A stretch of 64,000 nt of DNA from assembly GCF_003334815.1 (NCBI RefSeq), contig NZ_QOWO01000024.1; one strand, given 5' to 3'. Made by a program: the position numbers and the translations under genes. The DNA comes from Escherichia coli. GTDB taxonomy: Bacteria > Pseudomonadota > Gammaproteobacteria > Enterobacterales > Enterobacteriaceae. The notes beneath the pieces are model-generated. The model did no database searches and was not told the DNA's origin. It saw only the letters and a list, made by a program, of their open reading frames with translations. This document shows positions 2,321 through 25,635 of the stretch, piece by piece. Every line of letters starts with the position of its first letter. Position 1 is the stretch's first letter.

Positions 2321-3282
2321 TGCGTAGCGCGCAGGTATACCGCTGGCAGATCCCCATGGACGCGGGGGTGGTTCTGCGCGACAGGCGGTTAAAAACCCGC
2401 GACGGGCTGTATGTTTGCCTGCGTGAAGGCGAGCGCGAAGGGTGGGGGGAGATCTCCCCACTGCCGGGCTTCAGTCAGGAAACCTGGGAAGAGGCGCAAA
2501 GTGTGCTGCTTGCCTGGGTAAATAACTGGCTGGCAGGCGATTGCGAGCTACCGCAGATGCCTTCCGTGGCCTTTGGCGTAAGCTGTGCATTGGCAGAACT
2601 GACAGATACGTTGCCGCAAGCAGCCAACTACCGTGCGGCACCGCTGTGTAATGGCGATCCGGACGATCTGATCCTCAAACTTGCAGATATGCCAGGCGAG
2701 AAAGTGGCGAAGGTCAAAGTGGGATTGTACGAAGCGGTGCGCGACGGCATGGTGGTGAATCTGTTGCTGGAGGCAATTCCGGATCTGCATTTGCGTCTTG
2801 ACGCAAATCGCGCCTGGACACCGCTGAAAGGTCAGCAGTTTGCCAAATACGTTAACCCGGATTATCGCGACCGCATCGCGTTTCTCGAAGAGCCGTGCAA
2901 AACCCGCGATGATTCGCGAGCGTTTGCCCGTGAAACCGGCATTGCCATTGCCTGGGATGAAAGCCTGCGCGAGCCGGATTTTGCCTTTGTGGCTGAAGAG
3001 GGCGTGCGCGCGGTAGTTATCAAACCCACGCTCACGGGCAGTCTGGAAAAAGTACGCGAGCAGGTACAGGCGGCGCACGCGCTGGGGCTGACGGCGGTGA
3101 TCAGTTCTTCCATTGAATCGAGCTTAGGCTTAACGCAACTGGCGCGGATTGCCGCCTGGTTAACGCCGGACACCATTCCAGGGCTGGACACGCTGGATCT
3201 GATGCAGGCGCAGCAGGTACGTCGCTGGCCGGGTAGCACGCTGCCTGTCGTGGAAGTTGATGCACTGGAGCGGTTGTTATGA
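2320..3282 (+). CDS. menC: o-succinylbenzoate synthase (enolase superfamily)
   Basis: 320-aa ORF; 1-nt start/stop overlap with menB (TAATG); position in men cluster. Confidence 0.93.
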
Positions 3283-4634
3283 TCTTCTCTGACTGGCCGT
3301 GGCGTCACTGGCGGCAAGTGCGGGGAGAAACCATCGCCTTACGTCTTAATGACGAGCAACTCAACTGGCGCGAGCTTTGTGCTCGCGTCGATGAATTAGC
3401 CTCCGGATTTGCGGTGCAGGGGGTGGTTGAGGGCAGCGGCGTGATGTTGCGGGCGTGGAATACGCCGCAAACGCTGCTCGCCTGGCTGGCGTTACTGCAA
3501 TGCGGGGCGCGGGTGTTGCCCGTGAACCCTCAGCTGCCGCAACCGTTGCTTGAAGAATTGCTGCCCAATCTGACGCTGCAATTTGCTCTGGTGCCGGATG
3601 GGGAAAACACGTTTCCGGCATTAACGTCGCTGCACATTCAGCTGGTTGAAGGCGCACATGCCGCTACGTGGCAGCCGACGCGTCTGTGCTCAATGACGTT
3701 GACCTCGGGTTCTACCGGTTTGCCGAAAGCCGCTGTCCATACTTATCAGGCCCATCTTGCCAGTGCGCAAGGTGTGTTATCGCTGATTCCGTTTGGCGAT
3801 CACGATGATTGGTTGCTCTCTTTACCGCTGTTTCACGTCTCCGGTCAGGGAATTATGTGGCGCTGGTTATACGCTGGTGCGCGGATGACGGTACGTGATA
3901 AACAGCCATTGGAGCAAATGCTGGCAGGCTGTACTCACGCTTCACTGGTGCCAACACAACTCTGGCGTTTGCTGGTTAACCGTAGTTCCGTTTCCCTGAA
4001 AGCGGTGTTACTTGGCGGCGCGGCTATCCCGGTCGAGTTGACGGAACAGGCGCGCGAGCAGGGGATTCGTTGCTTTTGCGGCTATGGTCTGACCGAGTTT
4101 GCCTCCACGGTGTGTGCGAAAGAAGCCGACGGCCTGGCAGACGTTGGTTCGCCGCTGCCGGGTCGGGAAGTGAAAATCGTTAATAATGAAGTGTGGCTGC
4201 GGGCTGCCAGTATGGCAGAAGGTTACTGGCGTAACGGGCAACTGGTTTCACTGGTTAATGACGAAGGCTGGTACGCTACGCGCGATCGCGGTGAGATGCA
4301 TAATGGCAAGCTGACCATTGTCGGACGTTTAGACAATCTATTCTTCAGTGGCGGAGAGGGTATTCAGCCGGAAGAAGTCGAGCGCGTAATTGCTGCACAT
4401 CCTGCGGTTTTGCAGGTGTTTATCGTCCCCGTTGCCGACAAGGAGTTTGGTCATCGACCGGTGGCGGTGATGGAGTATGACCACGAGAGCGTTGATCTTA
4501 GTGAATGGGTGAAAGATAAGCTGGCCCGTTTTCAACAACCGGTGCGCTGGCTAACTCTGCCGCCGGAGCTGAAAAACGGCGGTATTAAAATTTCACGTCA
4601 GGCGCTAAAAGAGTGGGTGCAACGTCAGCAATAA
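3279..4634 (+). CDS. menE: o-succinylbenzoate-CoA ligase (adenylate-forming enzyme)
   Basis: 451-aa ORF with AMP-binding motif TSGSTGLPK; ATGA overlap with menC. Confidence 0.93.
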
Positions 4635-19436: not shown

Positions 19437-20240
19437 ATGAACGCATTATTAAGCAATCCCTTTAAAGAACGTTTACGCAAGGGCGAAGTGCAAATTGGTC
19501 TGTGGTTAAGCTCAACGACTGCCTATATGGCAGAAATTGCCGCCACTTCTGGTTATGACTGGTTGCTGATTGACGGGGAGCACGCGCCAAACACCATTCA
19601 GGATCTTTATCATCAGCTACAGGCGGTAGCGCCCTATGCCAGCCAACCCGTGATCCGTCCGGTGGAAGGCAGTAAACCGCTGATTAAACAAGTCCTGGAT
19701 ATTGGCGCGCAAACTCTACTGATCCCGATGGTCGATACTGCCGAACAGGCACGTCAGGTGGTGTCTGCCACGCGCTATCCTCCCTACGGTGAGCGTGGTG
19801 TCGGGGCCAGTGTGGCACGGGCTGCGCGCTGGGGACGCATTGAGAATTACATGGCGCAAGTTAACGATTCGCTTTGTCTGTTGGTGCAGGTGGAAAGTAA
19901 AACGGCACTGGATAACCTGGACGAAATCCTCGACGTCGAAGGGATTGATGGCGTGTTTATTGGACCTGCGGATCTTTCTGCGTCGTTGGGCTACCCGGAT
20001 AACGCCGGGCACCCGGAAGTGCAGCGAATTATTGAAACCAGTATTCGGCGGATCCGTGCTGCGGGTAAAGCGGCTGGTTTTCTGGCTGTGGCTCCTGATA
20101 TGGCGCAGCAATGCCTGGCGTGGGGAGCGAACTTTGTCGCTGTTGGCGTTGACACGATGCTCTACAGCGATGCCCTGGATCAACGACTGGCGATGTTTAA
20201 ATCAGGCAAAAATGGGCCACGCATAAAAGGTAGTTATTGA
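19437..20240 (+). CDS. rhmA: 2-keto-3-deoxy-L-rhamnonate aldolase (HpcH/HpaI family)
   Basis: Start at ATG 19437 ([13 protein letters not shown]) gives 267 aa; the longer track ORF 19134-20240 runs back into the rhmT coding region in another frame. Confidence 0.9.
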
Positions 20241-20246
20241 TATCAA

Positions 20247-20271
20247 AGGCCCATGGGGATCGGCTGTGGGC
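20247..20271. terminator. Stem-loop between the convergent rhmA and ypaA (possible bidirectional terminator)
   Basis: GGCCCA-tggggatcggctg-TGGGCC, perfect 6-bp GC-rich stem; flanking T content is modest. Confidence 0.35.
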
Positions 20272-20280
20272 CTGTGTTAA

Positions 20281-20466
20281 TTAGTGGTTATTCGCTGCCA
20301 GATCGGCTTCGCTTAGCTGGGTGGCCGCGAGCACCTGGTCACGATCAAAGCCCTGTTCCAGCATGCGCAAAGCAATTTTAATGGCTTGTTCATGCAAACC
20401 TTCTAATTTACCTTCCTGCCAGCCAATTTGATGTCCTTCCTGCCGCAGCCGTTCAGCAATAGTCAT
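20281..20466 (-). CDS. ypaA: YpaA, 61-aa paralog of the RpnE C-terminal domain
   Basis: 61-aa ORF ([19 protein letters not shown]...) nearly identical to the last ~60 residues of the adjacent rpnE; product of a local tandem duplication. Confidence 0.75.
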   Translation of the reverse strand: MTIAERLRQEGHQIGWQEGKLEGLHEQAIKIALRMLEQGFDRDQVLAATQLSEADLAANNH

Positions 20467-20665
20467 TAATCTCTCCTTTTAATGACAGTTCGGAATATCA
20501 GCATCAGTGAGTTGGGTTGTCGCCAGCACAATCTCACGTTCAAAGCCCTGCTCCAGCATGCGCAAAGCAATTTTAATGGCTTGTTCATGCATACCTTCCT
20601 GCCAGCCAATTTGATGCCCTTCCTGCCGTAGCCGTTCAGCAATAGTCATTAATCTCTCCTTTTGT
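20400..20665. repeat. Tandem direct duplication (~190-bp unit) covering the rpnE 3' end and ypaA
   Basis: CATGCGCAAAGCAATTTTAATGGCTTGTTCATGCA and CCGTTCAGCAATAGTCATTAATCTCTCCTTTT each occur twice about 190 bp apart. Confidence 0.8.
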
Positions 20666-21378
20666 AGTGGTGAACGTTCGGCAATCTCCTCAATAAAACG
20701 GGTGAAACGGGAGGTATCGCCGCATTGCAGCAGATAATTAAACAGTGTTTGTAGCTGGCTGTCATTAGTGAAGCCTCTAACCAAAAGCGTGGTGATCCTG
20801 TCGACCATGCCGATTAAATCGCGGTCGCGAATATGCTTTTGAATCAGTTCCAGCAGAGCTATACGCCGATGTTGCATGATCTCATCGTCAGGTACGATGG
20901 TGATATCCACCAACGGAAAAGCTTCGGTGTACAACTGCCGGGCAAGTTGCGGATCGTCAAACTCATCCAGCCAGTTGAGTGAGTACGGGTAAGGCGAGGT
21001 TTCGCCATGATAAAACAGCAACGGCACCACCAGCGGGACTCTGTCATAGCCTTTGTCCAGGTGACGCTGCATGGCGGCAGTGGCATAGCGCATTAGCCGA
21101 AAAGCCATATTCTTTTCTGCAGAGCTTTGATGTTCAATCACGCAGTAGATATAGCCGTCACCGTCGCTGGTTTCCACGGACCACAAAACATCCGAGTAGT
21201 AAGCGCGTAAACTTTTTTCAATAAAACTAGTGGGTTCCAGGCGTAAGGTTTGCAGGTTGCAAAGCTTGCGCAGTGGTTCTGGTAAATGTATTTCGAGAAA
21301 ATCCCGTGCGGTTTCGGGTGTGAACATAAAGGTTTTAAATACCGCATCATGCGGGGAGGAGGTTGTTGATTCGGTCAT
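20479..21378 (-). CDS. rpnE: Rpn-family recombination-promoting nuclease / transposase-like (PD-(D/E)XK) protein RpnE (YfaD)
   Basis: 299-aa ORF; Rpn/YhgA-like family by sequence recollection; located between rhmA and glpC. Confidence 0.8.
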
Positions 21379-21570
21379 GGTTGTCCGTCACCTGATATTT
21401 ATGATGACGCGACATTACGGTTATCCCAGGCCTTTGACATCTGCCAGTTTCAGCCTTTGCGAGACGTTTTCAGAGGAATTTTCACTGCGTTGCAACGCAT
21501 ACATTGGGCACGGAATCGTGTACGCAAAAATGCCCGGTAACCACATGCTTACCGGGCATCAGAAAGGAGT

Positions 21571-25635
<4,065 letters not shown>

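Follow-up and report, generated by a model that had tools for sequence, protein, structure and literature searches.

Genes of the Rpn family hold a gene within a gene: in-frame internal starts of rpn genes yield small RpnS proteins (Zhong et al. 2023, PNAS 120:e2307382120, PMC10400941), and Ribo-RET peaks have been found at such starts in all five rpn genes, with the internal product of rpnE noted as YpaA-like (Meydan et al., bioRxiv 10.1101/520783). RpnS keeps the full-length protein RpnL from being toxic, inducing SOS and cleaving DNA, as shown for RpnA, RpnB, RpnC and the plasmid-encoded RpnP2; protection from phages has been shown only for plasmid-encoded RpnP2 among the Rpn proteins (PMC10400941). 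RpnA_S is a three-helix dimer (crystal structure 7TH0), and in RpnC one repeat added to either partner abolishes neutralisation, whereas its addition to both restores function (PMC10400941). Here we analyze the rpnE (yfaD)-ypaA locus in a stretch of 64,000 nucleotides (nt) of the Escherichia coli contig NZ_QOWO01000024.1 (GCF_003334815.1), referred to as the window throughout its full length. The nuclease gene rpnE makes its own presumed inhibitor from an internal start and, at this locus, the inhibitor has also been copied out as the free-standing gene ypaA. Inside rpnE toxin and antitoxin must co-evolve, whereas the free copy need not, and its repeat number differs from that of the neighboring RpnE in every two-copy locus that we read.

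That ypaA is a second copy of RpnE_S is already known. It was published in 2023 under the name rpnE_Ss (Zhong et al. 2023, PMC10400941), and the gene in the window is the same gene at the same locus, with nothing different in kind. RpnE_S and YpaA have both been detected by immunoblot of the proteins as fusions to the SPA tag (for sequential peptide affinity), and RpnE_Ss was found to cluster with RpnE_S, with loss through deletion or fusion noted (PMC10400941). An earlier note on this DNA, made from the sequence alone, had proposed to look for independent translation of ypaA in ribosome-profiling data; such peaks and the tagged protein are already in print (PMC10400941). The present analysis goes beyond the published description in the population frequencies, the single shared junction, the ancestral end in ypaA, the mosaic divergence of the copies and the repeat mismatch between RpnE and YpaA, the last of which is not discussed in the main text of the 2023 paper (PMC10400941).

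YpaA has the N-terminal motif and, in its predicted fold, the three-helix architecture in common with the RpnA_L/RpnA_S pair (7TH0). RpnA_S, however, is made only from within rpnA, and it is without repeat units at the point of insertion, seen as a 12-residue gap in the alignment with YpaA. Antitoxin activity has been demonstrated for RpnA_S; that of YpaA would follow by analogy. A stand-alone RpnS has also been described for rpnC, free-standing downstream of its parent like ypaA and of independent origin (Zhong et al. 2023, PMC10400941). A further, independent arrangement of this kind was seen in Rahnella bruchi DSM 27398 (L052 3652-3900), where an rpn gene of 312 amino acids (aa) is followed after 213 nt by a stand-alone RpnS-like open reading frame (ORF) of 82 aa (MTIAEQLRLEGFLKG…); compared with the parent tail, this free copy carries additional 4-aa repeats, and its C-terminal end has diverged. 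It thus resembles ypaA in its place downstream of the parent, its different repeat number and its diverged end, but the spacing is 213 nt rather than 12 nt. Zhong et al. (PMC10400941) drew an analogy to the specificity subunits of EcoR124I and EcoR124II, which differ in TAEL repeat number. Both in these enzymes and in Rpn the copy number of an in-frame 4-aa, 12-nt helix repeat tunes specificity, but in EcoR124I/EcoR124II the repeats set the DNA-target spacing of a restriction enzyme and not a protein-protein pairing, and there is no homology to Rpn. Orphan or solo antitoxins of type II systems are, like YpaA, small helical proteins homologous to a cognate antitoxin that lack a toxin gene of their own. 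Unlike in those systems, the cognate antitoxin is here intragenic, the solo copy lies in the putative operon of the toxin and specificity would be set by helix length through the 4-aa repeats.

ypaA repeats the presumed internal antitoxin module of rpnE

The locus was identified as the E. coli rpnE (yfaD)-ypaA locus because of its placement between yfaU/rhmA on one side and glpC on the other and the RefSeq annotation of rpnE. RpnE carries an N-terminal domain of Pfam family PF04754 (Transposase_31; E=7e-88, residues 8-209) and scores 699.5 bits against the NCBIfam model NF007418 (equivalog cut-off 583) and 173.5 against TIGR01784 (cut-off 52.1). It retains, at the same positions, all residues that are essential in RpnA, namely D11, D63, E82, Q84, R94 and PDDEI163-167 including D165 (list for RpnA from Kingston et al. 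2017, PMC5350276). AAGGAG sits 8 nt 5' of the ATG of Met244, and with this in-frame internal start and ribosome-binding site ~55-60 codons before the stop codon rpnE has the layout of a gene within a gene. Of the 80 Rpn loci scanned (Enterobacterales and others, L009-L088), 50 had an in-frame internal methionine in the motif MTIA(E/Q)xL and, after it, an array of xxxG/xxEG 4-aa units that varies between loci. Array lengths vary widely across Rpn loci, with for example ~8 RQEG units in Paludibacterium purpuratum (L062).

The earlier note had described ypaA as nearly identical to the end of rpnE in a direct repeat of ~190 bp with the same start context in both copies. The repeat is real: pairwise blastn of the two units (20281-20480 and 20479-20663) gives E=3.4e-56, so the segments are significantly similar at the nucleotide level, and in a search of the entire 64-kb window with ypaA nothing but the gene itself and the rpnE tail (E=3.4e-46) was matched, with the next best match at E>1. 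The start context is also alike. The first 19 residues are common to both copies, as are the 14 nt upstream of the ATG (AAAAGGAGAGATTA), which form the Shine-Dalgarno context, and these 14 nt together with the first 57 coding nt are identical in 58 of 60 alignment columns. This shared context is the internal translation initiation site of rpnE, which itself already makes the free C-terminal module as RpnE_S. Near identity, however, does not extend over the unit, where 160 of 200 columns are identical; at the protein level YpaA and the RpnE tail are 78.6% identical over 56 aligned positions with a gap of 4-5 residues (BLASTP of YpaA to RpnE 244-295, E=1e-27).

The similarity of the copies is mosaic, with ~97% identity in the first ~135 aligned nt and ~65% in the last ~60 nt (~20 C-terminal codons). 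One 12-nt indel separates them, an extra AAATTAGAAGGT (KLEG) in ypaA at 20398-20409, and the ~50 nt that follow this extra unit are again ~96% identical. A repeat search returned two in-register blocks of 72 nt at 97% (spacing 183) and 102 nt at 84% (spacing 195). Tandem Repeats Finder made no call on the repeat, as it consists of no more than two copies, which differ by an indel and at the diverged end. For the internal product of rpnE and YpaA, '98% identical' is stated in bioRxiv 10.1101/520783; given the identity in the window sequence, this figure of the 2019 preprint overstates the similarity of the copies.

The duplicated unit consists exactly of the Shine-Dalgarno sequence, the rpnE_S ORF and the stop codon, head to tail. 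At the join, which reads …CAT TAA/AAGGAGAGATTA ATG…, the copies abut with a 2-nt AA overlap compatible with both parental sequences. Only 12 nt lie between the rpnE stop codon and the ypaA ATG, and the stop codon itself lies on the ribosome-binding site of ypaA. A search for terminator-like sites found none between rpnE and ypaA and only one after ypaA (20247-20273). Because the unit contains only 14 nt upstream of the start, the spacer is 12 nt long and no terminator intervenes, ypaA is most likely co-transcribed with rpnE/rpnE_S and translationally coupled, as far as can be judged from this layout. A scan of 20150-21600 for sigma-70 consensus promoters gave no sites, and an internal promoter reported from differential RNA sequencing (dRNA-seq) was not placed.

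YpaA matches NF007418 (E=3e-31) at positions 244-308, the last 65 of this model for RpnE, and PF27070 (HTH_Rpn_C) is among its precomputed hits; a Pfam-A scan of YpaA and the RpnE tail with a library that lacks PF27070 gave no significant C-terminal domain. By sequence, its best match in the PDB is RpnA_S (7TH0, E=3.4e-4). An AlphaFold2 model built on 30 RpnS-like tails has a mean predicted local distance difference test (pLDDT) score of 79, with helices at 3-37, 42-49 and 53-57, and the long first helix holds the 4-aa repeat units. The top PDB match of this model in Foldseek is again 7TH0, with probability 1.00 and a target-normalised template modelling (TM) score of 0.73; the E value is 0.015, as the chains are very short. 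The repeat array begins at residue 16, in agreement with the RpnS trait of 4-aa repeats 8-20 residues past the initiating methionine, and at the protein level all copies of YpaA and RpnE_S agree in their N-terminal 15 residues, although 10 nucleotide sites vary there. YpaA is predicted to be an RpnS-type three-helix protein. In analogy with RpnA_S and RpnC_S, it would dimerise through its long first helix with an Rpn C-terminal domain of matching length. The proposal that a free C-terminal module may modulate the nuclease had been offered as unproven in the earlier note; RpnS antitoxins have been published for RpnA, RpnB, RpnC and RpnP2, and the proposal would apply to RpnE and YpaA by analogy.

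RpnE and YpaA differ in repeat number

Repeat numbers were read in 23 two-copy loci (10 haplotypes) and in 26 loci retrieved from public assemblies by exact protein sequence, 49 in total. Across strains, the rpnE tail has 1 to 9 units and ypaA 1 to 7, and the changes are always in-frame multiples of 12 nt. The counts of RpnE and YpaA were equal in 0 of the 23 two-copy loci, with 1/2 units in the window and 6/1, 6/2, 9/5, 9/7, 9/2, 7/5, 5/1, 4/2 and 2/3 in the others. The 26 additional loci gave no match either (0/26). Pairings are stable: the K-12 RpnE always stands beside a 2-unit YpaA, from which it differs by exactly one repeat, and the 57-aa YpaA beside a 6-unit RpnE, with one 5-unit case. 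These data show that repeat matching is not maintained and do not imply that mismatch is favored.

By the RpnC rule, a cognate antitoxin has the same repeat number as its toxin, which YpaA has not (1 versus 2 in the window). Since no two-copy locus examined has arrays of equal length in YpaA and the adjacent RpnE, and since the C-terminal ends differ too, YpaA is, by analogy with RpnC, probably not the cognate inhibitor of the neighboring RpnE_L and not a simple back-up antitoxin for it. Inhibition of RpnE_L would then fall to RpnE_S, which is matched by construction. If the repeat-matching rule holds for RpnE, YpaA has a role other than the neutralisation of its neighbor.

Population frequencies and history of the two copies

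The locus was present in 5,421 of 5,426 complete E. coli genomes (megablast). We found the rpnE-type 3' end (…IPNCH) in 3,134 of these 5,426 genomes (58%) and the ypaA-type end (…AANNH) together with the rhmA-side flank in 5,409 (99.7%), and ypaA lies downstream of a derived-end rpnE in every locus read. From these two counts it follows that ~58% of E. coli genomes have two copies and ~42% a single rpnE with a ypaA-type end, the latter confirmed in three loci (L003-L005); the comparison of copy number across E. coli genomes that the earlier note had called for is thereby made. The two-copy arrangement spans strains as different as K-12, ST131, UTI89 and O145. The rpnE-type end has 3,135 places in its 3,134 genomes, and the ypaA-type end with flank 5,410 in 5,409; the extra place in one genome each could reflect an array of three copies or a segmental duplication of larger size. 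A scan of metagenomes for the junction pattern returned one locus.

The junction CAYTAA/AAGGAGAGATTR-ATG is alike in 23 of 23 two-copy loci read. Because every sampled two-copy genome has the same junction, the arrangement appears to have arisen once, in the E. coli lineage. A single event would have duplicated the ribosome-binding site, the rpnE_S ORF and the stop codon head to tail, with the AA overlap. In two further Escherichia species, E. albertii, five Citrobacter species and Salmonella diarizonae the syntenic rpnE is single-copy, and in the outgroup Escherichia it ends in …LSEADLAANNH or …AAKPH, followed by the same hairpin as at 20247-20273. Because these single-copy genes share its end and the hairpin, ypaA appears to hold the ancestral end and the in-gene copy a derived one. 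After the duplication ypaA would thus have kept the ancestral C-terminal end and its flank, with the in-gene copy carrying the derived end. The earlier note had ypaA generated from the C-terminal module of rpnE by tandem duplication. The derivation stands, in view of the clustering of RpnE_Ss with RpnE_S and the one junction, but the polarity is reversed.

The derived and the ypaA-type 3' segments differ at 12-16 of 45 nt, including several synonymous sites. For comparison, E. coli and E. albertii differ at 7 of 45 nt in the same segment, so the divergence of the derived end is ~2x as large. The 5' segments of the two copies show only 0-4 differences in 45 nt and 1-5 in 51 nt, with polymorphisms shared between the copies. 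These data would fit two histories, an old duplication followed by concerted evolution of the 5' part, or birth of the arrangement between alleles that had already diverged. The derived (IPNCH) end is absent from the 80 species-representative Rpn loci. A foreign origin of this end was considered and is not supported, as none of the 80 loci carries it and its closest relatives are Escherichia rpnE tails.

E. coli SCPM-O-B-8794 (L013), a separate species-level representative, has one copy of the unit, the end of which changes cleanly from rpnE-type to ypaA-type after ACCCA, and its rpnE body is 93.5% identical to that of K-12. Judged by its sequence, this gene is best read as a recombinant fusion, with a derived end that would be old or mobile. 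The pair had been called a ready substrate for recombination or slippage, and this is borne out by the ~42% single-copy genomes, the crossover in L013 and the frequent in-frame changes of 12-nt copy number. In Escherichia whittamii Sa2BVA5 (L011, match 2501-3421) the frame of the syntenic rpnE is stopped after …LIQKHIR, which leaves an ORF of 187 aa, whereas the tail downstream can still be recognised together with its internal start; the toxin may have become a pseudogene here and the antitoxin part been kept.

Apparent constraint on ypaA

The ypaA ORF was intact in 49 of 49 two-copy loci read. Its segregating sites, counted outside the array, comprise 10 synonymous and 7 nonsynonymous ones, which corresponds to a ratio of nonsynonymous to synonymous polymorphism (pN/pS) of 0.21 (P=0.0015 against neutrality). 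The in-gene tail has 10 synonymous and 5 nonsynonymous sites (pN/pS 0.14). Relaxed constraint on ypaA relative to the in-gene tail was considered and rejected, since 10:7 and 10:5 do not differ (Fisher P=0.73). The polymorphism data suggest that ypaA is under purifying selection and apparently not decaying.

The annotation of the gene was examined in 21 two-copy RefSeq genomes (L001, L002, L006-L008 and L090-L105). In 20 of these the NCBI pipeline flags ypaA as a pseudogene ('incomplete; partial in the middle of a contig; missing N-terminus'), often with the feature extended by 12 nt up to the rpnE stop codon, and the sole protein record is WP_001383434.1 in L090. As a practical point, most of the RefSeq E. 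coli genomes fetched label YpaA a pseudogene fragment, although the protein has been detected by experiment.

Possible roles of YpaA

Overall, we consider it likely that YpaA is a free second copy of RpnE_S with a single origin and coupled expression, which is non-cognate to its neighbor and constrained and takes part in recombination. YpaA would still be under apparent purifying selection, while the repeat pair recombines to give single-copy fusion genes. Several points weigh against this account. Permutation predicts only 2.2 matching loci among 23 (probability of none 0.064) and 0.9 among the 10 haplotypes (0.37), and independently drifting arrays would match only ~9% of the time; selection for repeat mismatch was rejected as a claim, as neither permutation result is significant. 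The repeat-matching rule is known for RpnC only, where it was found with an insertion of +1 (PMC10400941), and K-12 RpnE caused no toxicity, SOS induction or recombination in any overexpression assay of 2017, so that toxicity of RpnE_L is not established (Kingston et al. 2017, PMC5350276). The co-transcription and coupling are read from spacing only, and the promoter scan of the region was empty. Gene conversion from the in-gene copy could inflate the constraint on ypaA, and shared polymorphisms are visible.

YpaA could instead be a genuine second antitoxin of the neighboring RpnE_L, a dose booster or back-up that binds despite the length difference, for example if RpnE tolerates register shifts or if binding is governed mainly by helices 2-3 and the 15 invariant residues at the N-terminus. 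Among the Rpn paralogues of K-12, RpnE alone has an additional free RpnS gene on the chromosome and alone was inactive when overexpressed, which may be a coincidence or a dose effect. It nevertheless keeps all catalytic residues, and a second antitoxin would agree with the invariance of those 15 residues in all copies despite 10 variable nucleotide sites and with a ypaA that appears constrained and is translated. We still regard this role as rather unlikely. The lack of toxicity in 2017 is equally explained by RpnE_S, which was unknowingly co-expressed from the gene in the overexpression of rpnE (PMC10400941), the K-12 difference is exactly the +1 repeat that abolished RpnC neutralisation, the repeat numbers differ by 1 to 7 units in 23/23 loci, the C-terminal ~20 residues differ too, and ~42% of genomes do without ypaA. 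That same dispensability, which extends to all outgroup species, would be expected if ypaA were a functionless by-product, translated through the inherited ribosome-binding site in the rpnE transcript and slowly lost by recombination. Its repeat number drifts independently of rpnE, and the NCBI pipeline flags a pseudogene fragment in 20 of 21 two-copy RefSeq genomes. However, the excess of synonymous sites (pN/pS 0.21, P=0.0015), the ORF intact in 49/49 loci with all array changes in-frame, the persistence in ~58% of genomes across K-12, ST131, UTI89 and O145, and the independent analogues downstream of the Rahnella rpn gene and reported for rpnC make a mere by-product quite improbable. Equally improbable in our view is that ypaA serves mainly as a recombination partner, an archived tail with which crossover or conversion exchanges repeat number and C-terminal end in RpnE_L and RpnE_S at once and changes the specificity of the system. 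Single-copy rpnE bodies fused to a ypaA-type end are common, the L013 chimera shows a crossover, polymorphisms of the 5' segment are shared between the copies, and Zhong et al. speculated that RpnL itself initiates recombination of the copies (PMC10400941). Yet a crossover deletes one copy and the switch would be one-way, most single-copy genomes could be simply ancestral rather than fusions, and non-reciprocal conversion of the 3' segment was seen in none of 49 two-copy loci, where the in-gene copy is always IPNC[HY]-type and ypaA AANN[HR]-type.

As to the origin, the two-copy arrangement could have been born heterogeneous, if two rpnE alleles that had already diverged, or rpnE and incoming DNA, recombined unequally or illegitimately, rather than through duplication of one sequence in situ and later divergence. 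The sharp mosaic of few 5' (0-4/45 and 1-5/51 nt) and many 3' differences (12-16/45 nt), the 5-6 synonymous differences in ~11 conserved codons of the 3' segments (direct reading), the 3' divergence of ~2x the E. coli-E. albertii distance (7/45) and the presence of the derived end in chimeric form in L013, a lineage with 6.5% divergence in the rpnE body, point in this direction. We hold such a birth to be possible but somewhat doubtful, as a single-copy genome or species representative with a pure IPNCH end was not found, leaving the donor allele unobserved, and as an old duplication with concerted 5' evolution and a fast-diverging hypervariable end explains the same pattern. A bolder reading takes YpaA for an RpnS paralogue that selection maintains precisely as a non-cognate one, keeping it unlike the adjacent RpnE in helix length and C-terminal end. 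It might then be (i) an archived ancestral specificity module movable into rpnE, re-setting toxin and antitoxin together, (ii) a decoy or sensor for a phage factor that targets RpnS, or (iii) an inhibitor of RpnE variants, incoming or allelic, that match it in length. We think this unlikely and leave it open because of the missing matches (0/23 and 0/26), the pN/pS of 0.21, the persistence in ~58% of genomes and the like pattern in Rahnella.

Features of the locus and further observations

The features of the locus are collected in Table 1. In RefSeq E. coli it is annotated as rpnE ('ISNCY family transposase') and a small 'hypothetical protein'. An Rfam search of 19500-22500 gave no RNA family, and the PADLOC-DB v2 (2023) models, a library that predates or omits Rpn, gave no match for RpnE or YpaA.

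Table 1. Features of the rpnE-ypaA locus; positions are counted from the first nucleotide of the window.
Feature	Position	Strand	Basis
rpnE (yfaD), full-length Rpn/YhgA-like PD-(D/E)XK nuclease RpnE_L, 299 aa	20479..21378	-	ORF; PF04754; NF007418; RefSeq name
rpnE_S, in-frame internal ORF (Met244 of RpnE to stop), 56 aa, presumed intragenic antitoxin module	20479..20649	-	internal Met at residue 244
Shine-Dalgarno context of the rpnE internal start (AAAAGGAGAGATTA), within rpnE codons QKERL; 5' end of repeat copy 2	20650..20663	-	
ypaA (= rpnE_Ss), stand-alone RpnS-type small protein (predicted fold), 61 aa	20281..20466	-	ORF; NF007418; PF27070; 7TH0
Duplication junction: rpnE stop TAA (20479-20481) overlapping the ypaA Shine-Dalgarno context (AAAAGGAGAGATTA, 20467-20480)	20467..20481	-	
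Repeat copy 1, ypaA unit, 200 nt	20281..20480	-	
Repeat copy 2, rpnE tail unit, 185 nt	20479..20663	-	
12-nt (4-aa) repeat array of ypaA with WQEG and KLEG as its two units; the unit that rpnE lacks is 20398-20409	20398..20421	-	
rpnE 12-nt repeat array, one unit WQEG in this strain	20593..20604	-	
ypaA 3' segment (…DRDQVLAATQLSEADLAANNH*), apparently ancestral-type C-terminal end contiguous with ancestral flank	20281..20346	-	
rpnE 3' segment, apparently derived end (…IPNCH)	20479..20541	-	
GC-rich hairpin between convergent rhmA/yfaU and ypaA; likely terminator of the rpnE-ypaA transcript	20247..20273		conserved in outgroup flanks

Free RpnS mimics encoded by phages were considered and rejected: the 7 matches in a phage collection were mostly mislabelled bacterial contigs or full-length rpn genes (e.g. 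Sodalis phage phiSG1). A plasmid search returned 2,375 records, which correspond to the known plasmid rpn genes. In one assembly (GCA_016586755.1) the same locus stands at both ends of a 5.19-Mb contig (L122 and L123), with rpnE calls that are cut short or split (252 aa; 242 + 75 aa); the duplicate is probably an un-trimmed circular overlap with sequencing errors and not biology. On the other side of rpnE, positions 21530-21559 of the window hold an inverted repeat of 14 nt around a 2-nt loop (ATGCCCGGTAACCA/TGCTTACCGGGCAT), which follows just after the stop codon of glpC on the minus strand. This is probably the glpC terminator, which would give rpnE its own promoter within 21379-21529.

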